60,924 nucleotides of DNA from Bacteroidales bacterium (GCA_041690235.1 JAWLHS010000002.1:1-60924); one strand, 5' to 3'. Shown: positions 16,391 to 30,356, counted from the stretch's first letter. Notes: generated from the sequence alone by a model not told the origin. Numbers and translations are program-made.

Positions 16391-16756
16391 ATGTCAAATT
16401 ATCACGAACCAGTAGAAGAATTATCACAGGAGGCACGCAATTTTTCACGCGCGCTCAACAGCCTGAAAGAAGAAATTGAAGCGGTCGACTGGTACCACCA
16501 GCGGGTGGTAACATGCAAGGACCAGGAACTGGCCGGAATAATGGCACACAATCGTGATGAGGAAATTGAGCATGCCTGCATGACGTTGGAATGGCTGAGA
16601 AGAAACATGCCAGGCTGGGATGAGGAACTTCGCAACTATTTATTTAAGGAAGGCAGCATTGCCGGACATGAAGAGGCTGCCAACGAAGGCGAAAAAGATA
16701 GCGCCGGTTCAACCTCTCCAGGCTCCGACTCTCTGGGCCTGGGAAAGCTGAAGTAA
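16391..16756 (+). CDS. Encapsulated ferritin (EncFtn / ferritin-like cargo protein)
   Basis: HEPVEELSQEARNF...LKEEIEAVDWYHQRV...MAHNRDEEIEHACMTLEWLRR closely resembles characterised EncFtn, including the EExxH metal-site motif. A flexible Gly/Ser/Glu tail ends in a targeting peptide. Confidence 0.9.
   Translation: MSNYHEPVEELSQEARNFSRALNSLKEEIEAVDWYHQRVVTCKDQELAGIMAHNRDEEIEHACMTLEWLRRNMPGWDEELRNYLFKEGSIAGHEEAANEGEKDSAGSTSPGSDSLGLGKLK
16721..16753 (+). other. Encapsulin cargo-loading (targeting) peptide at the EncFtn C-terminus
   Basis: The last 11 residues, GSDSLGLGKLK, fit the family-1 targeting-peptide consensus (SLGIGSLK-like) and follow a disordered linker. Confidence 0.75.
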
Positions 16757-16843: not shown

Positions 16844-17635
16844 ATGGATATTCTTAGAAAATCACTGGCCCCGATCTCAAATGAGGCGTGGAAAGAAATT
16901 AATGAAACAGCCGTTGACGTGCTGTCTTCGGTGTTGTCAGCAAGGAAGTTTGTCGATGTTGATGGGCCCAAGGGATGGGATTTTGCCGCCCTTCCCACCG
17001 GGCGTATACAGGTGCCTGCTTCCCAGAAAGGCTCTCTGAAGTATGGAATTCACCAGGTGCTGCCATTGGTGGAAGCCCGGATTCCTTTTGAACTGGATAT
17101 ATGGGAACTTGACAATGTGGCCCGTGGCGCAGAAGATATTGACCTGGGAGCCATGGAGGATGCCGCAAGAAAAATTGCCCAATTTGAGGAGAGCGCCATT
17201 TATGAGGGGTTTAAGCCTGGGGGTATTGTGGGGCTCAAGGGCAGTTCCGAACATGAAGCCATTGCCTTTCCCGAATCGACAGAAGACATTATGGGAGCCA
17301 TCTCCCTGGGTCTTTCAAAACTTAAGGCTGCCTCCATTGAGGGACCGTATTCCCTGGTCCTTAATACAGAAAAATGGCAGAAGGTGAACGCTCATGTAAG
17401 GGGATACCCCTTGCGCAAACAAATTGAGGGCTTGTTGGGCGGTTCCATTATTATGGCCCCTTACATAAAAGATGCCTACCTGGTGTCAGAACGCGGCGGC
17501 GATTTCAAAATGGTGATAGGCCAGGATCTTTCCATTGGCTATGAATCTCACAGCAGCAAAAAGGTCCAGTTATACTTCACCGAGTCATTTACGTTCCAGG
17601 TGATCGATCCGGCCACCGTGGTGGTTTTAAAATAA
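16844..17635 (+). CDS. Family 1 encapsulin nanocompartment shell protein (HK97 fold, linocin M18-like)
   Basis: 263 aa, alignable by eye along its whole length with Thermotoga maritima encapsulin (MDILRKSLAPISNEAWKEI.., KFVDVDGPKGWDF, LDIWELDNVARG, VSERGGDFKMVIGQDLSIGYE, FTESFTFQVIDP). Confidence 0.93.
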   Translation: MDILRKSLAPISNEAWKEINETAVDVLSSVLSARKFVDVDGPKGWDFAALPTGRIQVPASQKGSLKYGIHQVLPLVEARIPFELDIWELDNVARGAEDIDLGAMEDAARKIAQFEESAIYEGFKPGGIVGLKGSSEHEAIAFPESTEDIMGAISLGLSKLKAASIEGPYSLVLNTEKWQKVNAHVRGYPLRKQIEGLLGGSIIMAPYIKDAYLVSERGGDFKMVIGQDLSIGYESHSSKKVQLYFTESFTFQVIDPATVVVLK

Positions 17636-17872: not shown

Positions 17873-19534
17873 TCAATGATTCTCCGGGGTGGATTGCTGG
17901 CTGAAATAATCATTCATCACCTGACGGAAATCCTGCATTGACATATCATAACGGGGTGTTAGGCTGTGTTTTCCCGGGAAATTTTCCATGTGCAGGGTCT
18001 GAGTCGGGAAGGCAAAACGAATGCCGAGCTTTTCGGCCAGGCGAACGATCTCAATCAGTACCTCATGCCTGGCCTTCAACTCTTCGGGCCAGGTCGGAAC
18101 GGCAAAAAAGATGTAGAACATCACCTTCAGCGAAAAATCGCCCATCTCGTTAAACTCAACAATATAGAAATCCTTGCGGGTTCTTGGGTGCCTTTCGACA
18201 ATTTTCCTGAGGCCCTCAACGAATACTTCGATCAGATCCGGCGGTGTGTCGTAAGTGATGGCAATATGCATGAAAAACCGGCGGTATTTTCTCAGTCCGT
18301 GGTTGTCGATGGTGGAATCGGCCAGCTTTCCATTGGGCACATAGGTGAGGGAGTTGCGGAAGGTCCGGATCCGGGTGGATCGGAACCCGACTTCTTCAAC
18401 GGTCCCATCCAAATCGCCGCTGGTTATCCAGTGGCCAACCGAAAAAGGCTTGTCAATAAAAATCATCAGGGAACCGAAAAAGTTTTTCAGCGTATCCTGG
18501 GCCGCCAGGGCAAGGGCCAGTCCCCCAATTGAAATTCCCGCCAGTAAAGCCGTGATGTTGATATCCAGATTCTGAAGAATGAAGAGTCCGCCGACAATCA
18601 CCACAAAGACCCGAAGTACTTTCCTGATGATCGGGATCACATGGTTGTCCAGGCTCGAATCTCCCTTTCCGGCAAGGCTTTCCAGGTAAAGAGAGAACAC
18701 ATCCACCAGTTTGTAAAACACCACAGTGGCAAAAAAAGGCAGGATGGCCCGGAAACCATAGTTGATATACCGGGCCGCTTCAACCGGCAACTGAAGTACC
18801 GGAAACACCACCATGATGAAAACAAAAACCACAAAAAGGCTCAGGGGCTTTGCAACAGGCAGCAAATAAGGACGTACGAGCTTTGTATACCCCAGCTGGG
18901 AAGCGCCCCGGTATAGAAGCCGCCTGAATAAAAAGGAAAGCAGCTTGTGAAGTAAAAAGCTCAGGGTGATGACAATTAGAATCCCCAAATGTTGCCAGAG
19001 ATGCAATCCGAAAAACTTATTGGTGCCGGCCCGGGGCAGTATATCCAACAGCGCATCGGTTCCGAAGGGAAACACGTCCTGGTGCAGCTGATTGATCTGC
19101 TCTATACTTGAAAGGCTGTACAGCCATTGTTCTCCTGCGCGCTGTAAATAAATTTCGGGGATGGCGGAAACCGGGATGAACTGATGCCTTCCCGATACAG
19201 AATCGGTATAGGCAGGGTCAACCGGCAAGCTTGTCATGTCAATATAATACCCGCGTCCGTCGAACACCTGCTTTAGCTTGATGGCCGCTTCCACAGCCTC
19301 TTCCTGGCTGACACCGGGCTGCATGAAAGCCCGGGCTGCGACCCCCGGCTCGTAGCTGTCGTCCTGCAGGTAAAACAAGTGGGTGTAAATGGTGGCGTGG
19401 GGACTGTTCAAACGTGCATCCGTGAGGGTGTCGGGGGGTGCAGGGTCCTGTTGTGCAAAAACTTCCGGTGAAAAGGCCAGGGCCATGACAATTGAAGCCA
19501 GGGCAGCGGTTCTGAAAAATAAACTTCTTGCCAT
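17873..19534 (-). CDS. Mechanosensitive ion channel family protein (MscS-like with a large N-terminal periplasmic extension)
   Basis: A signal peptide (ALAFSPEVFAQQ), several TM segments, and the MscS pore/beta-domain motif FIDKPFSVGHWITSGDLDGTVEEVGFRSTRIRTFRNSLTYVPNGKL. Confidence 0.88.
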   Translation of the reverse strand: MARSLFFRTAALASIVMALAFSPEVFAQQDPAPPDTLTDARLNSPHATIYTHLFYLQDDSYEPGVAARAFMQPGVSQEEAVEAAIKLKQVFDGRGYYIDMTSLPVDPAYTDSVSGRHQFIPVSAIPEIYLQRAGEQWLYSLSSIEQINQLHQDVFPFGTDALLDILPRAGTNKFFGLHLWQHLGILIVITLSFLLHKLLSFLFRRLLYRGASQLGYTKLVRPYLLPVAKPLSLFVVFVFIMVVFPVLQLPVEAARYINYGFRAILPFFATVVFYKLVDVFSLYLESLAGKGDSSLDNHVIPIIRKVLRVFVVIVGGLFILQNLDINITALLAGISIGGLALALAAQDTLKNFFGSLMIFIDKPFSVGHWITSGDLDGTVEEVGFRSTRIRTFRNSLTYVPNGKLADSTIDNHGLRKYRRFFMHIAITYDTPPDLIEVFVEGLRKIVERHPRTRKDFYIVEFNEMGDFSLKVMFYIFFAVPTWPEELKARHEVLIEIVRLAEKLGIRFAFPTQTLHMENFPGKHSLTPRYDMSMQDFRQVMNDYFSQQSTPENH

Positions 19535-19664
19535 GTTGCGGTGGTTTGGGGCTGTGATCCGGGAGACGCAAAGTTAGATATTATGAAAGGCATTAACAAA
19601 CCCGATTTTTGCAACAAATCAGGGCGGATCCACCCATTCATGTGCAAAAAAAATTATCTTTGAA

Positions 19665-22600
19665 ATGTCCAATAAAGCAACCGGCGTGGGAAAAGCGAAG
19701 AAATTTGGTGCCTTTGGAGGGGTGTTTACCCCATCCATCCTAAGTATCCTGGGTGTTATCATGTTCCTTCGTTTGCCCTGGATTGTCGGACAGGCAGGGC
19801 TTTGGTCGACCCTTGGGATCATCCTGGTGGCCCATATTATCTCTCTGAGCACCGGGCTCAGCGTGGCGTCCATTGCTACGGACAAGCGGGTGGGGACAGG
19901 TGGAAGCTATTTTATTATCTCCCGAAGCCTGGGACTTCCGATAGGCGGCACGCTCGGAATCGCCCTTTTTGTTGGGTTGTCTTTCAGTATCAGCCTTTAT
20001 TTGATCGGATTTTCAGAGGCCTTTCTCTCCTTCTTCGGATTCGAGGTCAGCTTATTTGCCATTCGGATCGTTGGCTCCGTTATGTTGTTTTTTTTGGCCA
20101 TCGTAACCTTTATCAGCACTTCCCTGGCCATCAAAACCCAGTACCTGATCATGGCAGCCATGGTCTTGTCGCTCGTTTCGGTATTTTTTGGCAACCACGC
20201 CTTTGTTCCTGAACAACCGCTTTTCTCCCCTATGAGCGGGGCTTTACCATGGATCACCCTATTCGCCATTTTTTTTCCGGCCGTTACCGGTTTTCAGGCG
20301 GGTGTGTCCATGTCGGGCGATTTGAGAGACCCACGAAAACAAATTCCTTTTGGGACGATCTCAGCCATATTGGTTGGGCTTATCATTTATATTGCCCTGT
20401 CGGTCTTTTTTTCATTGACCATTGAGCGTGGATTACTGGTCAATGACACACAGGTATTGTTTACCACTTCCTGGATCCCTCAGCTTGTTATTGCCGGTAT
20501 TCTGGGCGCTACCCTGTCTTCTGCGCTTGGCGGTATTCTTGCCGCCCCTCGAATTTTGCAGGCCTTGTCGATGGATCGAATTCTTCCCGGCTTTTTTGCC
20601 AAAGGTTACGGGGCCTCCAATGAGCCGCGCAATGCCCTTCTGGTGGCTTATGTGATTGCCCAGTCGGGCATTCTGATCGGTGAACTGAATGCCATTGCCC
20701 GGATCGTTTCGATATTTTTCATCATTATATACGGATTCCAAAACATTACTTATACGGTTGAAAGCTGGGCGGGGACCGATTTTCGTCCATCTTTCAAGAT
20801 TCCCCGCATCATCAGTATTATCGGGGCCATTGCATGCATCATCGTGATGATCCAATTGGACGTCATTGCGTTGATCATTGCGTCCGTCGGACTGATCGCC
20901 CTGTTTTTGTTTCTGAAGAAAAAGGAACTGACCCTGCAGACAGGAGATACCTGGAACAGCATATGGACTTCCCTTGTGAAAACCGGATTGGGCCGGCTCA
21001 CAGCCAGCAGCCGCCGGGCAAATAACTGGAGGCCCAATGTCATACTGTTTAGCGGGGGTGAGAAAAGCAGGCCCTACCTGATTGAAATGGGGAAATCCCT
21101 GGTTGGAAAGCTGGGCATTTTTACCAATTTCGAGTTAACGGAGGATCCCGCCACCGAGACCCCCTTTAAAAAAGTGACGGAGCCCGGCATTGGGGTTCAG
21201 GCCGGCAGGCCCGGTTCGTTTACCCGCTATCACGAATGCCGTGACATATATGAAGGGATCAGTGTCATAACGAAAGTATATGGTTTCTCCGGGTTCGAGC
21301 CAAATACCGTATTGATGGGCTGGGCAAGGAACGCCCGCAATCCGGAAAAGTTTAGCGGGATATTGCGGGATTTTAAAAAGCAGGATTTAAACGCCGTATT
21401 TTTGAGTTTTAACAAAACCGCTGGGTTTGGGAAATTCCGGATCATCGATGTTTGGTGGACGGGCAGCGGACGGAACCTGTCCTTTGCCATTACCTTGTTG
21501 CGTTTTCTTACGTCAAGCAAGGAGTGGAGGGCCGCCACCATCCGGGTGCTGAGCATTACCAACGACTCTGCGCAGACAGACCCCCTGTACAGCTTGATTA
21601 ACCAGGTGCTTGACAACCAACGCATGCGGGCCAGGGTCAAGGTCATCCATAACGGGGTGGAGCAGATTCCCGAAGCAGATATCATCCGTGCAGAATCCCG
21701 CCATGCCGACCTTTGCCTTTTGGAACTTCCCGATTTTGGTAAAAAGGATCCGGCAAAATTGATTGAGCGCATCAATGCCCTGACTGCCTCTTTGAACAGC
21801 TGTCTGCTCATTTCGGCCGCCACTTTTTTTGATGAGATCAGCGTCAAGCGAACCAAGCCTTCGAAGGAAACTACTGCCTCACCCATACTGAACAAACCCA
21901 AACCAGGCATCCTGCAACATTTGCGACCTTCTTCCAGGGAGATTATTGCCAATGAAGTCTACAATATTGGAAAGCTTGGGGAGAAGCGGGTTCAGAATTT
22001 TTATGAGGTAAGCTTTGAACAGGTGATGGACAAATACGCCGGGTTCTTTCCCGAACTGGACTTTCTGACCGGGAAAATGTTTGACCATCTGTCCAAAAGT
22101 CTGGATATTAAAAAGCCTGCAGAACGATCCAGGGCCTTGCTGCGGCTGCTGAACGATTTTTCATTTCACTCCCAAAGACATCTGCTGGTTTACAAGGAAC
22201 AAATGGTTCCATATCAAAGAGAATGTCTGGAAAAAGGGATTGGTAACTTGCTGGCCGACCTGAAACGAACCATCGGTGAGGTTCCGGAAAAGATATGGAT
22301 TAAGCGGGCGCGTAGTGAGTTCAGGATTGAGAAGGAAGACCCGTTTGCTTCCAAATGTTATAAGATCCGGAAGATCTTGCTTGCTACGATTACCCGGAAG
22401 GCCGTTCCCCATAAAATCAACCTGCTGCCGGCTGCCAAATACTATGTTTATCACAAGCGGCTTGAGTTATTGAGGTCCATGACGAACGAGATCGTTCTGC
22501 ATTCCTTCCGCCAGGTGGCAGACATCAGGAAAGTGCTGGCACCTGTCCATGAGGCCATCGAAAAGGCCCGTCTGAGATCTGCCGACCAATCCAAGCTTTC

Positions 22601-24836
22601 CGAAACCATCCGGCTGGAAAAGAACAGGTTGAAGGCCAGGGTAAACGTTCTGAGTGATGACGACAGACAATTCAATTACCAGTCCGGACAACGCCTCTAT
22701 GCAACCCTGCTGGAAGACCTCAACAGCCTGACCCTGCACCTGGAAAGCACCAGGGCCAACTTGATCAGCAAGAATTTCAAGGCGTATTTCAAACAAGAGG
22801 AAAAGCTCCTTGAAGAGATCCAGGCTTTTCCCGAAATATGGGAGAGAAACATCATCCTGTTTATCAACAAGGCCCTGCTGGATTTCTCTGTCTTGTCACT
22901 GCAAAGCCGCATTGATTCAAAAATTCAAAAATACCATCTTGATTTTGCCGCCTCGTGCGAAACGTCAATCCTGCAAGTTATCCGGTCTTATAAACAGCTT
23001 TTACTGGACGAGAATATCACGGGCAAGGAGATTGGTCGTCGTTTTGAAAAACTTGATCACTCCCAACTCTCCATTCCTCAGGCCAATGAACACTATGAAG
23101 CATTGTTTGATGAGATCAGGGACTTGCTGAAAGACATGCCGGAGAAATTTGAAATTGGTGGCGATGAGTTCGCAGAGCATGCTGGTTTTGACAGTTTCTC
23201 TGCAGCTGAACCCGTGGCGGTCCATTTCCGTAAAGCACTGTCCTTGTTTGTGGGTGCCGAATTGATTGATCCGGGCATCAGAAAAACCATTGATGTGGAG
23301 CGGCAGTTTCAAAAGAACATTATCGGCCTCAAGGACCTGGTCCGGTTGATGAACTTCAGCCTTACGGCGGAAGAAGGGATTGATGACGACTCCGGCCAAA
23401 AGGAAAAACGGGAGCAACTGAAGGACTTGCTTGGTAAGTTTTCTCAGAAGCTGTCTGAGGAGGAAATCAGGATGAAACAGATTTTGGAAGATCTTGAAAA
23501 GTCTTTTAACGGGTATTTAAGGGCAGCCTTTGAACCGTTGTCCTCGGCAACCATAGGGAAAACCAGCCTTGAGCTAAGGAAACGACGCAAAGGGAGTGAA
23601 GGCAGCCTTGTATTTAAGCGGATCAACCAAAGCCTTCAAAAGGTCACCGACCTTACCCGGCAACAATTTGTGAACCTTCTCTACAGTAAAAGCGAGGGCA
23701 TGATATGGTTCAGACATTTTGAAAAACCAGCCGTCAGTGACCGCTTATCCAACACTGACACCCTCGCATTTGTAGAGGCCATTACACCTTCGGCCACCGT
23801 GTTGAAAGATCTCCCGTTTTATTATTGCACCTTGTTTTCGGGACAGGCAGGCATCGGAGATGATTTTTGGGTGGGAATGAACAGCCAGATTGATGAGGCC
23901 GACCAAGCCATCAACCGGTTTAAAGCCGGACTGCCAGGTGCATTGATCGTTACCGGTGCAAGGAGTTCGGGGAAGTCAAGCCTTTCCAAAATGATGGCAC
24001 GAAAGCACTTTGCGAATGAGAATATTCATCAAATCAGGGCACCGCAAGCTTGTACCGCAGATCTTTCCCTTTTTACCGCCAAACTTCTTGAGGCACTGAA
24101 TGCCCATAACAAATCATTGGATGATGTATTCAGGGCATTGCCGGTCGGAAAAGCAATCATTATTCAGGATCTCGGGCTCTGGTGGGAGCGCCGGCCCGGG
24201 GGGAATGCGGTGATTGAGCTTTTAAAAACCCTGATTGACCGTTATGGACAGAAATGCCTGTTTATCCTGACAGCCAACAGTCACGCCCTGCAACTGATTG
24301 AGTTCTGGAGTCAGTTACAAAGTTATTCCCTGGCCACCATTACCTGTGAACCCTTCGATGCCCGGGACCTCCGAAAGTTGATTCTGCTCCGGCATCATGC
24401 CGGGGGACTCACCATACATTTTAACAAAAAGGAAGAGGAAAAAATGACGGCCTGGGATCATGCCAGGCTGTTCAACCAGTTGTTCGACAACTCGTTTGGG
24501 AATCCCGGTTCGGCCATCACCCTGTGGCTGGCAAGTATTAAAAAGGTTTCCGGGAAAACGATTTATATAGATTCCCTCAATCTCCCTTCAAGGGAGGTTT
24601 TCGACGCACTGAGCAGAGACCAGTGGTTTTATATCCTTCAGTTTGTAATCCACCGGCGATTTACCATCGAAACGCTTTCCAGGAACATTGAACAACCCAG
24701 GGAACTGGCCTATTCCGAAATTCGCGCATTGATGCGCGCAGGAATTTTGATTGAAAAGTTCCAGGGGATTTATGCAATTCAACCTGGGCTGGATCTTTAT
24801 CTGACCGAAAAATTGAAAACCCTGAACCGCTTATGA
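19665..24836 (+). CDS. SLC12/CCC-type cation-chloride cotransporter fused to a long helical region and a C-terminal P-loop AAA+/winged-helix module (1,723 aa)
   Basis: N-terminal FGAFGGVFTPSILSILGVIMFLRLPWIVGQAG and many hydrophobic segments indicate an APC/SLC12 fold. NNWRPNVILFSGG marks an SLC12 C-terminal-domain-like region. Walker A GARSSGKS lies at nt 23955-23978 and Walker B-like AIIIQDLG at nt 24153-24176. It is a single uninterrupted ORF. Confidence 0.8.
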   Translation: MSNKATGVGKAKKFGAFGGVFTPSILSILGVIMFLRLPWIVGQAGLWSTLGIILVAHIISLSTGLSVASIATDKRVGTGGSYFIISRSLGLPIGGTLGIALFVGLSFSISLYLIGFSEAFLSFFGFEVSLFAIRIVGSVMLFFLAIVTFISTSLAIKTQYLIMAAMVLSLVSVFFGNHAFVPEQPLFSPMSGALPWITLFAIFFPAVTGFQAGVSMSGDLRDPRKQIPFGTISAILVGLIIYIALSVFFSLTIERGLLVNDTQVLFTTSWIPQLVIAGILGATLSSALGGILAAPRILQALSMDRILPGFFAKGYGASNEPRNALLVAYVIAQSGILIGELNAIARIVSIFFIIIYGFQNITYTVESWAGTDFRPSFKIPRIISIIGAIACIIVMIQLDVIALIIASVGLIALFLFLKKKELTLQTGDTWNSIWTSLVKTGLGRLTASSRRANNWRPNVILFSGGEKSRPYLIEMGKSLVGKLGIFTNFELTEDPATETPFKKVTEPGIGVQAGRPGSFTRYHECRDIYEGISVITKVYGFSGFEPNTVLMGWARNARNPEKFSGILRDFKKQDLNAVFLSFNKTAGFGKFRIIDVWWTGSGRNLSFAITLLRFLTSSKEWRAATIRVLSITNDSAQTDPLYSLINQVLDNQRMRARVKVIHNGVEQIPEADIIRAESRHADLCLLELPDFGKKDPAKLIERINALTASLNSCLLISAATFFDEISVKRTKPSKETTASPILNKPKPGILQHLRPSSREIIANEVYNIGKLGEKRVQNFYEVSFEQVMDKYAGFFPELDFLTGKMFDHLSKSLDIKKPAERSRALLRLLNDFSFHSQRHLLVYKEQMVPYQRECLEKGIGNLLADLKRTIGEVPEKIWIKRARSEFRIEKEDPFASKCYKIRKILLATITRKAVPHKINLLPAAKYYVYHKRLELLRSMTNEIVLHSFRQVADIRKVLAPVHEAIEKARLRSADQSKLSETIRLEKNRLKARVNVLSDDDRQFNYQSGQRLYATLLEDLNSLTLHLESTRANLISKNFKAYFKQEEKLLEEIQAFPEIWERNIILFINKALLDFSVLSLQSRIDSKIQKYHLDFAASCETSILQVIRSYKQLLLDENITGKEIGRRFEKLDHSQLSIPQANEHYEALFDEIRDLLKDMPEKFEIGGDEFAEHAGFDSFSAAEPVAVHFRKALSLFVGAELIDPGIRKTIDVERQFQKNIIGLKDLVRLMNFSLTAEEGIDDDSGQKEKREQLKDLLGKFSQKLSEEEIRMKQILEDLEKSFNGYLRAAFEPLSSATIGKTSLELRKRRKGSEGSLVFKRINQSLQKVTDLTRQQFVNLLYSKSEGMIWFRHFEKPAVSDRLSNTDTLAFVEAITPSATVLKDLPFYYCTLFSGQAGIGDDFWVGMNSQIDEADQAINRFKAGLPGALIVTGARSSGKSSLSKMMARKHFANENIHQIRAPQACTADLSLFTAKLLEALNAHNKSLDDVFRALPVGKAIIIQDLGLWWERRPGGNAVIELLKTLIDRYGQKCLFILTANSHALQLIEFWSQLQSYSLATITCEPFDARDLRKLILLRHHAGGLTIHFNKKEEEKMTAWDHARLFNQLFDNSFGNPGSAITLWLASIKKVSGKTIYIDSLNLPSREVFDALSRDQWFYILQFVIHRRFTIETLSRNIEQPRELAYSEIRALMRAGILIEKFQGIYAIQPGLDLYLTEKLKTLNRL

Positions 24837-25543
24837 ACATACTGTATTTTGTCCTGACAGGGGTTTTGCTGTTTTTTGTCCTTCAACTGGGAGGCAGGGT
24901 CTTACATGCACTGGCAAGAAAAAATGCATTTAAACCCGCCGTGCTGAAGCTTTTTCCGGTGGTTGAACTGGGTGCCTGGATAGCCTATGCTTTTTGGGGC
25001 GCCCGTGTACTGTTCGGAAATATGCGTTATTACGAGCAAATTATTGCCGGCATGACGGGCCTGTTTGTCTTCGCCATTGCCTGGTACGTTTTTCGTGACT
25101 ACTTTTCTGGCATCATGCTCCGGTCAGAGTTTAAGCTGGAACTGGGCCAGATGATCAAAACCCCCGTGGCAGAGGGCCGGATCGTAACCCTGGGGCAGCG
25201 TTTTATTGAACTTGAAAACGAAAGAGGGGAGAAGACCAGAATTCCTTACGCGCAACTGAGTAATCAGTGGGTTAGCCTGCCATCCGAAGCCGGGAAGAGC
25301 CTCTCGCACCATTTGGTGGTTCCGCTCCCCGGACCGACCGACCCGTCTGTCTTGAAAGGAATGATTAACCAGGCCATGATGGGAATGCCCTGGGTGATCG
25401 GTCCGCCTCCTGTCATCAAAATATCAAAAAACACAGAGGGTCAGACACTCCTTGAGGTGAGCTATGATCTGCTCAAAGAGGAGCATGCCCTGGTGGTCGA
25501 GGAGAAAATCAGGGAACTGATCGGACACCAAAGCCATTCCTGA
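24833..25543 (+). CDS. Small MscS-family mechanosensitive channel-like protein
   Basis: Three N-terminal TM helices are followed by DYFSGIMLRSEFKLELGQMIKTPVAEGRIVTLGQRFIELENERGEKTRIPYAQL, which resembles MscS TM3 plus beta-domain. Its ATG overlaps the stop of the upstream giant gene (ATGA at 24833-24836). Confidence 0.65.
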   Translation: MNILYFVLTGVLLFFVLQLGGRVLHALARKNAFKPAVLKLFPVVELGAWIAYAFWGARVLFGNMRYYEQIIAGMTGLFVFAIAWYVFRDYFSGIMLRSEFKLELGQMIKTPVAEGRIVTLGQRFIELENERGEKTRIPYAQLSNQWVSLPSEAGKSLSHHLVVPLPGPTDPSVLKGMINQAMMGMPWVIGPPPVIKISKNTEGQTLLEVSYDLLKEEHALVVEEKIRELIGHQSHS

Positions 25544-25546
25544 GAC

Positions 25547-26530
25547 TTAGCTTTTCCGGCTTGTTGTAAATTCAATCAGCTGCTCCAGGGAGGTCCTGGC
25601 AGGCAGGTCGGGCATTGCCTTCAACATTTTGAGGGCCTGATCTTTATAACTGATCATTTGTTTGAAGGCGTAATCCACCCCCCCCTTGTTGTACACCAGG
25701 TCGATCAATTGGGCGACCCGTTCCGGATCCAGGTTGTGATTTTTGACGGTATTGATGATGTTTCTTTTCTCTGAGTAGGTTGCCTGATTAATAATGTGTA
25801 TCAGGGGCAGTGTCATTTTCCTTTCCTTAATATCCACACCCGAAGGCTTCCCTTTGGCAGTGTCCCGCTCAAAATCCAGTATGTCGTCCTTAATCTGAAA
25901 GGCAATGCCGGCTTTTTCCCCGATCAGTCGCATTTGTTCTGTTTGTTCGGGCCTGGCATTGGCCGATGCGGCTCCGCATGACAGGCAGGATGCAATCAGG
26001 CTGGCGGTTTTTTTCCGGATGATCTCAAAATAAACCGCTTCACGAATGTCGAGGCTTCTGGCCTTTTCGATTTGCATCAGTTCTCCCTCGCTCATTTCCC
26101 TTACCGAACCGGCTACAATTTTTAACAGGTCAAAGTCTTCGTTTTCCAGCGAAAGCAATAATCCCCTCGACAGAAGGTAATCCCCCACCAGAACCGAAAT
26201 TTTGTTTTTCCACAATGCATTCAGCGAGAAGAAGCCCCTGCGTTCATTGGAGTCATCCACCACATCATCGTGGATGAGTGTGGCGGTATGCAGCAATTCA
26301 ATCAGGGAAGCAGCCCGGTAGGTTCGCTCACTGATCTCACCGAACAATCCGGCAGAAAAAAAAACAAACATCGGCCGGAGTTGCTTGCCCTTGCGCTTTA
26401 CAATATACCTGGTGATGGTGTCCAGCAGGGGCACGCGGCTTTTCATGGAAGACCTGAAGCGCTTTTCGAAAGCCGTCATGTGGTCTTCAATGGGTGCTTT
26501 AATTTCGCTCAGGGATAATTGAGGTTCCAT
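25547..26530 (-). CDS. Polyprenyl diphosphate synthase (octaprenyl/long-chain type)
   Basis: First DDxxD motif LIHDDVVDDSNERRG and second motif FQIKDDILDF. Confidence 0.9.
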   Translation of the reverse strand: MEPQLSLSEIKAPIEDHMTAFEKRFRSSMKSRVPLLDTITRYIVKRKGKQLRPMFVFFSAGLFGEISERTYRAASLIELLHTATLIHDDVVDDSNERRGFFSLNALWKNKISVLVGDYLLSRGLLLSLENEDFDLLKIVAGSVREMSEGELMQIEKARSLDIREAVYFEIIRKKTASLIASCLSCGAASANARPEQTEQMRLIGEKAGIAFQIKDDILDFERDTAKGKPSGVDIKERKMTLPLIHIINQATYSEKRNIINTVKNHNLDPERVAQLIDLVYNKGGVDYAFKQMISYKDQALKMLKAMPDLPARTSLEQLIEFTTSRKS

Positions 26531-26559
26531 TGTTTTGATCCGGTGAGTGACTGGGTCGT

Positions 26560-28101
26560 TCAGGCTCCTTTGCTTTTGGGTCTTAGGTCAATGCGCTCAC
26601 GCACCACGCTGGCAATATTTTCAATGGGAATGCGATCCTGATGCATGCTGTCGCGTTCGCGAATGGTTACGGTCCCCTCCTCCAGGGTTTCGTGGTCTAT
26701 GGTAATGCAATAGGGCGTTCCAATGGCATCTTGCCTGCGGTAACGCCTGCCGATGGCATCTTTCTCCTCGTATTGACAATTAAAATCGTATTTAAGCCGG
26801 TCAAATATCTCCCTGGCTTTTTCCGGCATTCCATCCTTCTTGATCAACGGAAGTACGGCGATCTTTATTGGAGCCAGGGCAGGAGGGATCTGCATGACAA
26901 CGCGTTCCGATCCGTCTTCCAGGGTTTCTTCCTTATACGCCTGACTCACGATGGCCAAAAACATCCGGTCGAGGCCAATGGAGGTTTCCACCACATAAGG
27001 TACGTAGCTTTCATTGGTTTCCGGGTCAAAATACTGTAGTTTTTTCCCGGAAAATTCCTGGTGTGCCGTCAGGTCAAAATCGGTGCGCGAATGAATTCCC
27101 TCCAGTTCCTTGAATCCAAAGGGAAACTCAAACTCTATGTCCGAAGCGGCATTGGCGTAATGGGCCAGTTTTTCATGATCGTGCAGGCGAAACCTTTCCG
27201 GCGGAAAACCCAGGGCCAGATGCCATCGCATTCGCTCTTCCTTCCAATAACTGAACCATTCTTTCTCCTGTCCGGGCCTCACGAAAAACTGCATCTCCAT
27301 TTGCTCAAATTCACGCATTCTGAAAATGAACTGCCTGGCAACGATTTCATTGCGGAAGGCCTTGCCGATCTGTGCAATCCCGAAAGGCAACTTAAGCCTT
27401 CCGGTTTTCTGGACATTCAGGTAATTGACAAAAATCCCCTGGGCGGTTTCCGGGCGCAGGTAAACCTGGTTGGTGTCTTCGCTCAATGAGCCCATCCGGG
27501 TACTGAACATCAGGTTAAACTGCCTGACATCCGTCCAGTTCCGCGAGCCAGAAACCGGACAAGCAATGCCCAGTTCCTCAATCAGGGCCTTGATGTCGGC
27601 CAGACGGTTTTCTTCCAGGGCAGAAACAAAACGCCTGGTTATGGCTTCGATCTTTTCTTTATTTGCCAGTACCCTGGGGTTGGTTTCGCGAAACATCGTT
27701 TCATCAAAGTCCACCCCGAATCGCCTGGCGGCTTTTTCCACTTCTTTTTCGATCTTTTCGCCCAGCCGGGCCAGGTGGTCTTCGATCAGCACATCGGCCC
27801 GGTACCTCTTTTTTGAGTCCTTGTTGTCAATCAGGGGGTCGTTAAAAGCATCTACGTGTCCAGAGGCTTTCCATACAGCAGGATGCATAAAAATGGCCGT
27901 ATCCAATCCGACAATATGCTCATGATACTGCACCATTGACTTCCACCAATAGTCCTTGATGTTGTTTTTCAATTCGGCGCCGTTCTGCCCGTAGTCGTAT
28001 ACAGCACTCAGCCCATCATATATCTCACTCGAAGGAAAAATAAAGCCGTATTCCTTGCAGTGTGATATGATTTTTTTAAAAAGATCTTCTCCTTTTATCA
28101 T
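26560..28101 (-). CDS. glyQS: Glycine--tRNA ligase (dimeric class II type)
   Basis: N-terminal CKEYGFIFPSSEIYDGLSAVYDYGQNGAELKNNI, FRNEI, and a C-terminal anticodon-binding domain. Length is 513 aa. Confidence 0.93.
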   Translation of the reverse strand: MIKGEDLFKKIISHCKEYGFIFPSSEIYDGLSAVYDYGQNGAELKNNIKDYWWKSMVQYHEHIVGLDTAIFMHPAVWKASGHVDAFNDPLIDNKDSKKRYRADVLIEDHLARLGEKIEKEVEKAARRFGVDFDETMFRETNPRVLANKEKIEAITRRFVSALEENRLADIKALIEELGIACPVSGSRNWTDVRQFNLMFSTRMGSLSEDTNQVYLRPETAQGIFVNYLNVQKTGRLKLPFGIAQIGKAFRNEIVARQFIFRMREFEQMEMQFFVRPGQEKEWFSYWKEERMRWHLALGFPPERFRLHDHEKLAHYANAASDIEFEFPFGFKELEGIHSRTDFDLTAHQEFSGKKLQYFDPETNESYVPYVVETSIGLDRMFLAIVSQAYKEETLEDGSERVVMQIPPALAPIKIAVLPLIKKDGMPEKAREIFDRLKYDFNCQYEEKDAIGRRYRRQDAIGTPYCITIDHETLEEGTVTIRERDSMHQDRIPIENIASVVRERIDLRPKSKGA

Positions 28102-28110
28102 TGAAATAAA

Positions 28111-29049
28111 TCAGGTATTAACAATTACTTGAATGCTTTTCGGAACAATCTGGAATTCGAAGGGGGAATGGCCCAGTGACTCCCCGTCTGTTTCAAGGAG
28201 AACCGGAATGTCAGATTCAATGCGGATAAACTTTCCAACAAAAGTTTCAACCCGTTTGTGCTGGCCGATGGTGCCATTGTATAACCTTCTGAGGCTTTTG
28301 ATAACGGACCATTTTTTCATGTCTTTGATCAGGGTCACATCAAACAAGCCGTCGTCTGGAAGTGCGTCCGGTGTCTGCCGCATGCCGCCCCCATTGTATT
28401 GGCCGATCCCGATCCCAATGCTGAAAATTTTGTCAGTGATCACAACATCGTCTACGGTGACTTTGATTTGTGAAGATTTGTATGAAAACAAGGACGAAAT
28501 CAGGTTTTTTATATAGACAAAAGGATTGCTATGCCCCAGGTCCTTGTCTTGATTGGTTTTCTGTGCCACCAGACCATCAAATCCCAGGCCCGCCATGTTG
28601 ATGAAAAACCGTGTCTTTTCACAATGGGTGTTTTGATATTTAACGATCCCGGCATCCTGAACCAGGGTTGACCCCTGGTGGATGATTCGGATGGCTTCAG
28701 CGTACTCTGTAGGAATGTTAAATGTTCTTCCCCAGTCATTTCCTGTGCCGACAGAAATCATTCCAAGGATGATCTCAGCTGTAGGAACAGACTTTTGCTT
28801 GAAAATGCCATTGACCACCTCATTCATGGTGCCGTCTCCCCCCACGACAATTATTTTCCGGAATCCCCTTTGAATAAATTCTACGGTTAATTTCATGGCG
28901 TGCAGGCGCCTTTCAGTGAAAACGGGGTGGTAATCGAGTCCGTTTTTGTCGAGGAGGCCGGAGATCTTGTTCCAGTCTCTTTCGCCTTTTCTTGTTCCGG
29001 CATTGGGGTTTACCACTACCAACCAGCGGGCTTCAGCTAATTCTTCCAT
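28111..29049 (-). CDS. Diacylglycerol kinase-family lipid kinase (YegS/BmrU-like)
   Basis: VVVNPNAGTRKG and IIVVGGDGTMNEVVNG motifs of the DAGK catalytic domain. The ORF track extends to 29109, but the start at 29049 (MEELAEARWLVVV) is more plausible. Confidence 0.85.
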   Translation of the reverse strand: MEELAEARWLVVVNPNAGTRKGERDWNKISGLLDKNGLDYHPVFTERRLHAMKLTVEFIQRGFRKIIVVGGDGTMNEVVNGIFKQKSVPTAEIILGMISVGTGNDWGRTFNIPTEYAEAIRIIHQGSTLVQDAGIVKYQNTHCEKTRFFINMAGLGFDGLVAQKTNQDKDLGHSNPFVYIKNLISSLFSYKSSQIKVTVDDVVITDKIFSIGIGIGQYNGGGMRQTPDALPDDGLFDVTLIKDMKKWSVIKSLRRLYNGTIGQHKRVETFVGKFIRIESDIPVLLETDGESLGHSPFEFQIVPKSIQVIVNT

Positions 29050-29206
29050 TTTATTTGATCTCAGTGACGCCAGAACAAAACCAGGTGGTTTTGTTTTTGC
29101 AGAGTGCAAAAATAAGAAAAATCCATCAACCTGATAAACAAGCGTTTTTAAACTGATGGAAGGATTCCTTTATGTCTCAGCCGGCAAAGCAAGTCATGGA
29201 CAAAAT

Positions 29207-30199
29207 CTAAACAACAAATCCTCTTTCCATGAGCAGCTTTGCGATTTGCACGGCGTTGGTCGCCGCTCCTTTTCTCAGGTTGTCGGAAACAATCCAGATG
29301 TCAAGTCCTGACCGTACCGTTGTGTCGCGGCGAATACGCCCGACATAAACGGCATCTTTTCCCCTGGCGGTCAAGGGCATGGGGTATAGATTGTTTTTTG
29401 GGTCATCCTGGAGGATAATGCCGGGGGATTGTTCCAGCAAAGCCTTCAACCCGGGTAAATCATAATCGCGTTCAAATTCAATGTTTACGGCTTCACTATG
29501 GCCTCCCATTACCGGAATCCTAACCACGGTGGCAGTGAGCTGGAGGCTGTCGGTTCCAAGGATTTTCCGGGTTTCGTGAAGCAGCTTCATTTCTTCACTG
29601 GTGTACCCGTTCACAAGGAAGTCTCCCCCGTGGGGAAAACAATTCAGGTCGATCGGATGCGGATAGGCCATGCCTTGCGAAATGCCTTTCCGCTCATTCT
29701 CTAATTGTCTGACGGCATGCACCCCGGTTCCTGTCACCGACTGATAGGTAGCCATCACGATCCGCCTGACATGGTAACGAATGTGAAGCGGGGCAATGGC
29801 AACCACCAGTTGTATGGTGCTGCAGTTTGGATTGGCAATAATCCTGCGGTTCAGCGTCAGGGCGTGGGGGTTCACTTCCGGAACAACGAGGGGAACATTA
29901 TCGTTCAGGCGCCAGGCCGAAGAATTGTCAATCACAAAGGTCCCATTGGCGGCAAAAGCCTCTGCCCATTGTCTGGAAACCTCTCCCCCGGCCGAGAATA
30001 AGGCAACGGAAGGTTTGGCGTCAACTGCTTCACGGATGCTGCAAACGGGATAAGTCTTGCCGTTGAACAGGACTGGTTTCCCTATGGATCGCTCCGAGGC
30101 TGCAGGGTAAAATCCGGTTACCGGGATTTTTTGCTCTTCCAGAACTTTTATCATGACCTGACCAACCAGTCCGGTGGCCCCAATCAGTGCCAAATCCAT
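29207..30199 (-). CDS. asd: Aspartate-semialdehyde dehydrogenase
   Basis: LIGATGLVGQ NAD(P)-binding motif and active-site ANPNCSTIQL. The start is taken at 30199 (MDLALIGATG) instead of the ORF maximum at 30226. Confidence 0.92.
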   Translation of the reverse strand: MDLALIGATGLVGQVMIKVLEEQKIPVTGFYPAASERSIGKPVLFNGKTYPVCSIREAVDAKPSVALFSAGGEVSRQWAEAFAANGTFVIDNSSAWRLNDNVPLVVPEVNPHALTLNRRIIANPNCSTIQLVVAIAPLHIRYHVRRIVMATYQSVTGTGVHAVRQLENERKGISQGMAYPHPIDLNCFPHGGDFLVNGYTSEEMKLLHETRKILGTDSLQLTATVVRIPVMGGHSEAVNIEFERDYDLPGLKALLEQSPGIILQDDPKNNLYPMPLTARGKDAVYVGRIRRDTTVRSGLDIWIVSDNLRKGAATNAVQIAKLLMERGFVV

Positions 30200-30356
30200 G
30201 GTTCTTCTTGTTTGTTTTCGTTTCATGCCATTTCTTCCCGCCTCGTTTCACCGCCAAACCGAAAAGTCCCGCAGCATGCATGGTATGCTTGAGGGGGAAG
30301 CAGTCATGCTGGTTTTCTGCAAAAATAGTATATTTAGCCGCTATAAAATTCCTGTT

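Follow-up and report, generated by a model that had tools for sequence, protein, structure and literature searches.

A reading frame in the genome of a Bacteroidales bacterium (GCA_041690235.1 JAWLHS010000002.1:1-60924; this whole stretch of 60,924 nucleotides (nt) is the window referred to throughout) raises the question of why a cation-chloride cotransporter (CCC) of the SLC12 type should continue into a long tail that ends in an ATPase-like module and a winged helix, and what a protein so built might do for its host. The fusion is a real, widespread and uncharacterised architecture, one of whose domains is structurally novel as judged from its model, and it is accompanied by a previously unnoticed partner gene for a small protein related to MscS channels. 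A mechanism for fusion and partner is plausible: we propose that they form a nucleotide-gated module for ion and turgor homeostasis, in which a predicted NKCC-type CCC, a regulatory tail of about 980 amino acids (aa) and the MscS-like partner would work together, a function that we regard with belief and doubt in about equal measure.

One reading frame in many genomes

The initial annotation of this locus had claimed a single open reading frame (ORF) of 5,172 nt, and this is what we found: positions 19665-24836 of the plus strand hold one unbroken ORF of 1,723 codons, encoding 1,723 aa. The motifs quoted there also lie where they had been placed (nt coordinates calculated from the start codon), GARSSGKS being aa 1431-1438 (nt 23955-23978), AIIIQDLG aa 1497-1504 (nt 24153-24176) and LTAN aa 1535-1538. 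The protein and its predicted parts are as follows.

19665-24836, plus strand: whole fusion of CCC transporter, helical domain, AAA+ module and winged helix (unbroken ORF; full-length clusters; 64/64 loci)
19665-20999, plus strand: predicted APC/LeuT-fold transmembrane (TM) domain of SLC12/CCC type, aa 1-445 (AA_permease; alignment to human NKCC1 (hNKCC1); ligand conservation)
21000-21869, plus strand: predicted SLC12 cytoplasmic C-terminal domain, aa ~446-735 (TIGR00930; KCC alignments; Pfam SLC12 at cutoff)
21885-23564, plus strand: modelled all-helical domain of ~560 aa, aa 741-1300 (AlphaFold2 (AF2) model; no Pfam or PDB match)
23565-23849, plus strand: basic linker of low model confidence, aa ~1301-1395 (predicted local distance difference test (pLDDT); motif conservation; net charge)
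23850-24344, plus strand: predicted AAA+ alpha/beta base, aa ~1396-1560 (weak Pfam matches; Foldseek; motif columns)
24345-24584, plus strand: predicted AAA+ lid, aa ~1561-1640 (secondary structure of the model; conserved PFDAR..L...L.RH)
24585-24833, plus strand: predicted C-terminal winged helix, aa ~1641-1723 (HlyU/ArsR/SmtB matches; HTH families; model)

A frame of this composition might reflect no more than a sequencing or assembly indel that had joined two or three genes, and two loci could be cited in favour of such an artefact, namely L093, where the gene is in two pieces (651 + 1,042 aa), and L072, where the frame breaks near the C-terminus of the fusion. The relatives, surveyed for fused and split forms, argue otherwise. 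A word-indexed search of 5.8 billion proteins for full-length relatives returned more than 120 protein clusters of 1,683-1,763 aa, from many samples, that span 100% of the query at identities down to 45%. A single peptide pattern derived from the tail, scanned against one genome per GTDB species, was present in at least 276 species genomes; locus counts out of 80 given below refer to the best 80 of these 276. In these loci transporter and tail lie in one ORF in all 64 of the genes uncut by contig ends. Because the same ~1,700-aa ORF is shared by the >120 clusters and by 64/64 complete loci of independent genomes, an assembly artefact is ruled out, and we attach next to no weight to it.

The only candidate for a natural pair of split CCC and tail genes was L093 itself, where, on a 600-kb long-read contig (4029-9129), ORFs of 651 and 1,042 aa are separated by a 16-nt gap. 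We rejected it: the break falls within the CCC C-terminal domain and not at a domain border, and we therefore read the locus as a frameshifted fused gene, probably a frameshift error or a pseudogene.

The hosts are Bacteroidota metagenome-assembled genomes (MAGs) assigned to Bacteroidales, Prolixibacteraceae, Marinilabiliaceae, Rikenellaceae, Muribaculaceae, Cyclobacteriaceae and Sphingobacteriia, and the family is common both in anaerobic Bacteroidota and in those of saline habitats. Many of the closest relatives come from 'CSSed' and 'T3Sed' bins, MAGs of hypersaline soda-lake sediment; the name CSSed10 is found in soda-lake sediment metagenome papers. At 34% identity, the fusion can be aligned from end to end with a 1,709-aa protein that shares a cluster with a sequence from a Myxococcota MAG, so the fusion occurs in at least two phyla. 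Two MAGs each hold two fusion paralogues (L066 and L088 in SRP192927_co6_526; L055 and L075 in CWP5-1.bin.146), and L088, the second copy in SRP192927_co6_526, has no MscS-like gene directly downstream.

A protein identical to the fusion is entered in the databases as 'MAG: hypothetical protein R6U86_08780 [Bacteroidales bacterium]', and family members bear the names 'amino acid permease', 'hypothetical protein', 'AAA family ATPase' and 'ATP-binding protein', with one fragment called 'Na-K-Cl cotransporter'. The view that no characterised CCC has an ATPase/winged-helix tail stands, in that our literature searches turned up neither a CCC with a tail of AAA+ or STAND type nor a CCC-ATPase-MscS operon. 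Among prokaryotic CCCs, only the crystal structure of the Methanosarcina CCC C-terminal domain is cited in reviews and structure papers.

The transporter domain

Separate profile scans of the parts gave AA_permease/SLC12 on the N-terminal side and AAA_16/AAA_14 on the C-terminal side (the latter below Pfam cutoffs), in keeping with the domains that the initial annotation had assigned. In the transporter, Pfam AA_permease matches aa 20-434 (E 1e-44) and NCBIfam TIGR00930 (K-Cl cotransporter) matches aa 8-676 (E 1e-104), and the solved structures recovered are those of hNKCC1 (E 4e-71), KCC1-4 (1e-65 to 1e-68) and NCC (about 1e-58 to 1e-60), whereas other APC families match far more weakly (1e-5 to 1e-6). 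The cytoplasmic C-terminal domain, claimed at the outset as well, was recovered by several routes: alignments with KCC1, KCC3 and KCC4 extend to aa 662-704, the domain scanned alone scores 27.0 bits against Pfam SLC12, which is exactly the Pfam cutoff, a match of E 0.003 was obtained to 6vw9, a chain of a K+/Cl- cotransporter C-terminal domain, and precomputed PF03522 (SLC12) matches are present in many homologues. The region ends near aa 735 (nt 21869). Every sequence criterion tested, except the curated cutoff of TIGR00930, places the protein in SLC12/CCC (TC 2.A.30), and by these measures it is a CCC, yet one outside that eukaryote-centred subfamily model. The predicted plan, a 12-TM LeuT/APC fold followed by a cytoplasmic C-terminal domain, is that of NKCC1 (SLC12A2) and of the other SLC12 proteins KCC1-4, NCC and archaeal MaCCC.

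The roles of the ion-ligand residues of hNKCC1 were taken from the literature (PMC7035313, PMC7889885), and hNKCC1 numbering was obtained from the HMMER alignment (position in chain 7smp_B + 281). The K+ site residues Y383, P496 and T499 of hNKCC1 correspond to Y112, P205 and T208 of the fusion, those of the Na+ site (L297, A610, S613 and S614) to L26, A282, S285 and S286, and those of the Cl- sites (G301/V302, G500 and Y686) to G30/V31, G209 and Y356. All hNKCC1 side-chain ligands for Na+, K+ and Cl- are thus present in the fusion, the Ser-Ser pair of TM8 among them, and in an alignment of 119 full-length relatives the NKCC1-type positions, which belong to TM1, TM3, TM6, TM8 and TM10, are kept in 116-119 of the sequences (117-119 for Y112, P205, T208, A282, S285, S286, Y356, G30 and G209); only two ligand positions deviate there, both of them backbone carbonyls (N298, which is S, T or A, and W300, which is L).

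All Na+-dependent CCCs (NKCC1, NKCC2 and NCC) carry the TM8 Ser-Ser pair, and the Na+ site is absent from KCC1 (PMC7035313). Because this pair, the mark of Na+-dependent CCCs, is kept, the transporter domain is best described as a predicted NKCC-type, and we infer the transported ions on that footing. Unlike animal NKCC1, the fusion lacks the long regulatory N-terminus that bears the SPAK/OSR1 phospho-sites and adds some 980 residues after the C-terminal domain.

The tail: helical domain, AAA+ module and winged helix

The region that follows the transporter had been called a helical spacer of about 600 aa. Helical it is, in that the model of its ~560 aa is all-helical, but a spacer it is not: the domain is conserved, and when modelled alone (A2, tail residues 1-560) it gave a pLDDT of 86.4 and a predicted template modelling score (pTM) of 0.77, a confident result from which we take it to be a defined fold and not a flexible connection. 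The model consists of long helices of 45-75 residues with two small beta-hairpin inserts. No Pfam family matched the domain in the Pfam scan, a PDB profile search with the tail gave nothing beyond the winged helix-turn-helix (wHTH), leaving the helical domain with no sequence relative there, and the best Foldseek match of the domain to the PDB had an E of 0.097, with TM-scores of at most 0.17. The domain has no solved structural relative and is, as modelled, structurally novel. An internal repeat of two units (each a long helix, then a small beta hairpin and a further two long helices) was considered and rejected; hhalign aligned the two halves at an 'LPE..I.I' hairpin, with an E of 0.03 and a probability of 1.6%.

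In the AF2 model of the whole tail (A1, pLDDT 76.9) the long helices of residues 1-560 are followed by a linker at 560-620 and by an alpha/beta domain, lid and winged helix at 660-983. The linker (aa ~1301-1360, nt 23565-23750) has a pLDDT of 34-51 and is basic throughout the family (mean net charge +5.6), and this segment could be a flexible connection that binds the membrane or a partner. At the linker's end a conserved LPFYY..LFSG....FWVGM leads into the ATPase and, by eye, appears to stand where AAA_16 proteins have their N-terminal motif of FVGRE type.

The P-loop module had been likened to Orc1/Cdc6 or Arch_ATPase proteins, and the fold search agreed. Foldseek of the tail model against the PDB ranked archaeal Orc1/Cdc6 first (2qby_A, E 2e-7), and the leading entries (2qby_A, 1w5t_A, 7jgr_A, 1w5s_B, 2v1u_A and 1fnn_A) all had a probability of 1.00, with 377-402 aligned columns for the archaeal entries and 425 for 7jgr_A; lower matches included eukaryotic ORC/Cdc6, RFC, RuvB and the Arch_ATPase PABY2304 (2qen). 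A P-loop base, a helical lid and a C-terminal winged helix accordingly appear in Orc1/Cdc6 order in search and model alike. Sequence profiles pointed the same way at lower strength: AAA_16 and AAA_14 match aa 1403-1541 (E 1e-4 to 2e-5), and among nine members AAA_16 was matched in eight, AAA_22 in seven and AAA_14 in five.

In an alignment of 261 family sequences the residues of nucleotide binding are kept. Walker A retains G1431 (257/261), K1437 (250/261) and S/T1438 (255/261), with G1436 also conserved, Walker B retains D1502 (247/261), and the sensor-1 Asn, N1538 (nt 24276-24278), is found in 227/261. The residues of catalysis were not found in the same alignment: the position after the Walker B Asp, where the catalytic Glu would stand, is Leu in 222/261 (the residue after that is Glu in 203/261, but Gly in the window protein), no conserved Arg of a Box VII arginine finger lies between sensor 1 and strand 5 (aa 1539-1560), and the sensor-2 Arg of GDxR is replaced by GNPG....W, the last two absences being judged by motif position and not by residue-level superposition. 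The lid is strongly conserved at R1576 (259/261), H1577 (253/261), G1612 (259/261), G1615 (253/261) and W1621 (260/261), and to a lesser degree at N1613 (220/261) and P1614 (173/261). Since the binding motifs are kept and these three catalytic elements are not, the sequences suggest a nucleotide-binding switch with weak or partner-dependent hydrolysis rather than a motor.

The module may be compared with two groups of known ATPases. With archaeal Orc1/Cdc6 and related AAA+ proteins of the initiator or clamp-loader clade (2qby, 1w5s/1w5t, 2v1u, 1fnn) and with PABY2304 (2qen) it shares the base-lid-winged helix layout, and with Orc1/Cdc6 the FVGRE-like lead-in, the GKS/T Walker A and the sensor-1 Asn, as well as a strand-to-lid motif, 'PF(D)..eL..il..R', which we take to be that of Cdc6. 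Unlike Orc1/Cdc6 it has only ~13% sequence identity to them, a Walker B that reads D-L and not D-E, no Box VII arginine finger, GNPG in place of the GDxR of sensor 2 and a winged helix that is not basic, and it is joined to a transporter or a helical domain, whereas Orc1/Cdc6 proteins act at replication origins. With STAND NTPases of AAA_16 type (MalT/AfsR-like) it shares AAA_16 as its most consistent Pfam match, the GNPG (G-x-P) after the lid, aromatic residues after Walker B and the lack of an arginine finger, and because of these four features it fits the logic of a nucleotide switch. Unlike those proteins it has no C-terminal repeat sensor (TPR, WD40 or LRR) and ends at the winged helix, aa 1723; its scores lie below the Pfam cutoffs, and the fold search favours Orc1/Cdc6.

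The loss of catalytic residues bears on an alternative, in which the tail is a scaffold or assembly factor and does not gate transport: its helical domain and ATPase would keep the CCC and the MscS-like protein together within a single patch of membrane, or would build the channel, and the P-loop would be either vestigial or needed for assembly alone. The absence of the catalytic Glu, arginine finger and sensor 2 would suit such a role, as would the loss of the Walker A Lys in some lineages, a large elongated helical domain typical of scaffolds and a partner gene that is stoichiometrically coupled to the fusion. It is harder to reconcile with the retention of the Walker A Lys, Walker B Asp and sensor-1 Asn in tails that are otherwise only ~30-50% identical, and their persistence across such divergent tails speaks for continued selection on nucleotide binding. 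We consider a pure scaffold rather unlikely.

The predicted winged helix at the end of the protein raised a further possibility, that the fusion is a membrane-tethered transcription regulator, or 'transceptor', in which the CCC reports ion flux or occupancy and the AAA+/winged helix unit binds DNA and controls osmotic-stress genes such as the flanking MscS. That the protein ends in a winged helix, as the initial annotation had supposed, is supported by the helix-helix-helix-hairpin order of the model and by matches of the last ~85-90 aa to HlyU/ArsR/SmtB (E 0.007-0.4, the best being ArsR/HlyU at E 0.007), with HTH_20, HTH_24 and HTH_5 matched in single members. These resemblances to wHTH regulators speak for a DNA-binding role, and so do the AAA+-then-winged-helix layout of the DNA-binding initiators Orc1/Cdc6, which are also the top fold matches, and the existence of a stand-alone, soluble form of the tail. 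Against it stand the weakness of the wHTH matches and the charge of the winged helix, which is less basic than any other module (mean net charge +0.9, range -4 to +7). The putative recognition helix (aa ~1678-1692) is variable and acidic-rich with no conserved basic positions; such near-neutral charge and variable helix argue against a conserved DNA operator. Winged helices of AAA+ and STAND proteins, moreover, often make intramolecular or protein contacts, and a gene so closely coupled in translation to that of a membrane protein is more readily understood as encoding part of a protein complex. Regulation of transcription by the tail seems to us improbable, and a little more so than the scaffold.

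The MscS-like partner and a proposed role

If the tail is, as we prefer, a switch in a nucleotide-gated module, what does it act on? The initial annotation had overlooked two MscS genes that adjoin the fusion, one downstream and one divergent upstream, and these provide the strongest functional context. The features around the fusion are as follows.

24833-25543, plus strand: partner, 236-aa predicted three-TM MscS-like protein (Pfam MS_channel_2nd; ATGA overlap; synteny)
17873-19534, minus strand: 553-aa MscS-family channel, divergent, a context gene (MS_channel_1st, 2nd and 3rd domains)
16844-17635, plus strand: Linocin_M18 encapsulin shell, 263 aa, E 5e-87
16391-16756, plus strand: EncFtn-like encapsulin cargo, 121 aa, E 8e-43
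25547-30226, minus strand: converging genes for a polyprenyl synthetase, a class II aminoacyl-tRNA synthetase (ProRS-like), a DAGK/YegS-type lipid kinase and an aspartate-semialdehyde dehydrogenase

The ATG of the partner overlaps the TGA of the fusion (ATGA, 4 nt). The encoded protein has three predicted N-terminal hydrophobic helices and then an MscS beta domain, the layout of the MscS family (E. coli MscS, YnaI); Pfam MS_channel_2nd is matched at aa 86-145 with 24.9 bits against a cutoff of 20.2, PF00924 is matched on the partner genes of three other loci (L002, L089 and L090), and TM3 with the beta domain (aa 72-145) aligns weakly with YnaI in a single-sequence search (E 0.47). With a TM3 pore helix followed by the beta domain it belongs, by sequence, to the MscS family and is a putative channel. 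It differs from MscS channels in being only ~236 aa long, very divergent and coupled to the tail protein, and for the coupling of an MscS channel to such a protein we found no description in the literature. A homologue of the partner lies directly downstream of the fusion in 77/80 loci, 52 of them with the identical 4-nt overlap, and in a 78th it follows a frame-broken tail; a partner also follows the Myxococcota homologue (279 aa, overlapping) and other truncated copies. The arrangement indicates that the partner is translationally coupled to the fusion.

The further MscS gene is frequent rather than universal, being directly upstream in 28/80 loci (17 divergent and large, 11 co-directional and of 281-295 aa), and divergent Na_H_Exchanger genes lie upstream of some fusions. 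Downstream, the converging genes look like unrelated housekeeping genes, and because they are convergent the operon ends with the MscS-like gene. The encapsulin nanocompartment pair is found upstream of the fusion in 8/80 loci and in L002, and on that account represents conserved synteny within a clade. Immediately before the fusion, at 19655-19662, TATCTTTG resembles the Bacteroidetes -7 promoter, whose consensus we take to be TAnnTTTG; it ends 2 nt before the ATG, too short a distance for it to serve this start codon, and we rejected it as a promoter of the fusion, the resemblance being probably a coincidence.

These surroundings also bear on a role in anti-phage defence or abortive infection, whereby a STAND-like NTPase would sense infection and kill through the CCC and the MscS-like protein as membrane effectors. 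An NTPase with a membrane effector is a common defence layout, and weak Pfam matches to nSTAND3 and nSTAND6 exist. On the other hand, no PADLOC-DB 2.0 model matched fusion, tail or partner (E <= 0.01), the protein is without variable C-terminal sensor repeats, and its transporter ion sites are strictly conserved; the gene's synteny with housekeeping and osmotic genes extends over many families, its neighbours being MscS and Na+/H+ exchanger genes and not mobile elements. We hold defence to be very improbable, and in order of plausibility the rivals to a turgor module run from scaffold or assembly factor through tethered transcription factor to defence.

The tail is not confined to the fusion. 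A tail profile (aa 741-1723) built from nine members, 30-42% identical to the window sequence, was run on 1.84 billion representative proteins and gave 2,304 clusters at E <= 1e-3, with 507 (50%-identity clusters) at E <= 1e-30. The best 150 of the 2,304 matches are mostly fusions of ~1,700 aa or fragments, but include a clade of complete free-standing tails of ~975-996 aa from Cyclobacteriaceae-like Bacteroidota; no other N-terminal fusion of the tail was seen among these 150, seven odd-length representatives giving only AA_permease/SLC12 or nothing. Because of the free-standing clade, the helical domain and ATPase appear to be an autonomous evolutionary unit that also exists as a protein of ~980 aa. 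The MscS-like partner follows stand-alone tails too (20% identity over its full length, E 2e-13), and the pair is flanked by Na_H_Exchanger genes; in L091/L092 (9691-11814, plus strand) the gene after the partner encodes a 707-aa Na_H_Exchanger fused to a Usp domain. The constant unit is tail plus small MscS-like protein, and its variable companions are all monovalent-ion or osmotic-release proteins. In KCCs, the inner lobe of the C-terminal domain has a structure similar to that of TeaD, the subunit that binds ATP and regulates the ectoine transporter TeaABC (PMC8280820), and by analogy the tail may generally accompany transporters bearing a TeaD-like nucleotide-binding cytoplasmic domain.

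In the nucleotide-gated module that we propose, the NKCC-type cotransporter would supply uptake of Na+, K+ and Cl-, while the AAA+ module would bind ATP or ADP and act as a slow conformational switch, not a motor. The helical domain would relay the state of the switch in two directions, to the C-terminal domain of the CCC and to the MscS-like partner, which would be a release valve or a tension sensor. In this way salt uptake would be matched to solute release or tension sensing, and turgor and ion balance would be maintained in saline habitats. Of this scheme, we infer that tail and partner touch, and likewise in which direction and by what logic regulation runs. Support for it comes from the part that the C-terminal domain is known to play in regulating animal CCCs, from the hypersaline soda-lake sediment origin of the closest relatives, and from the MscS and Na+/H+ exchanger neighbours. 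Regulation of a CCC by nucleotide also has a precedent, ATP/ADP being bound in the C-terminal domain of KCC1 (PMC8280820).

The likeness to osmosensing transporters is a conceptual one, a functional analogy without homology. A cytoplasmic extension or partner tunes the transporter in OpuA (CBS domains), BetP (C-terminal helix) and ProP (coiled coil), and in animal CCCs under WNK-SPAK. To our knowledge, neither an AAA+ module nor a helical domain of 560 aa is employed by any of them.

Several points weigh against our proposal. On the transporter side, TIGR00930 scores 351 bits against a curated cutoff of 953, and our prediction of ion specificity leans on animal NKCC1, a protein of ~30% identity. 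The whole-tail model has a pTM of 0.49, and the AAA+ scores fall under the Pfam cutoffs (AAA_16 25.7 against 32.6, AAA_14 25.0 against 27, AAA_22 15.3 against 27); because the ATPase module falls short of these curated thresholds and lacks the catalytic motifs, we place it in no named family. The Walker A Lys is lost in ~4% of members, and the Myxococcota homologue (P0283/L089) reads GESSSGTT, with that Lys gone while the full architecture and the overlapping partner are kept. Since some members lack this Lys, nucleotide binding is not universally required, which suggests that it is dispensable in some lineages. Two stand-alone tails (L005 and L008) have neither an MscS-like nor a transporter neighbour. 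Finally, CCCs are dimers and MscS channels heptamers, so that the stoichiometry of a complex is hard to match.

A bolder version of the proposal, which we think unlikely, is that the locus encodes a self-contained bacterial regulator of cell volume and turgor, in which an NKCC-type importer is wired through a novel helical transducer to an Orc1/Cdc6-like AAA+ switch that also controls an MscS-like valve, the tail and MscS-like pair being portable and serving Na+/H+ exchangers as well. If this were true, one operon would exert reciprocal control over uptake and release, as WNK-SPAK does on NKCC and KCC in animals.

CCCs are major drug targets and are central to the control of animal cell volume. 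The family described here offers a candidate bacterial NKCC with all the NKCC1 side-chain ligands for Na+, K+ and Cl- intact. It also offers what may be a new regulatory solution, with a predicted AAA+ switch and a 560-aa fold without known relatives joined to the CCC C-terminal domain, the element that regulates animal CCCs, and a genetic link not reported before, in that one locus encodes a CCC, an ATPase and an MscS-like channel. Should the mechanism hold, it would offer a tractable system in which to study how a cell ties salt uptake to nucleotide state and membrane tension.

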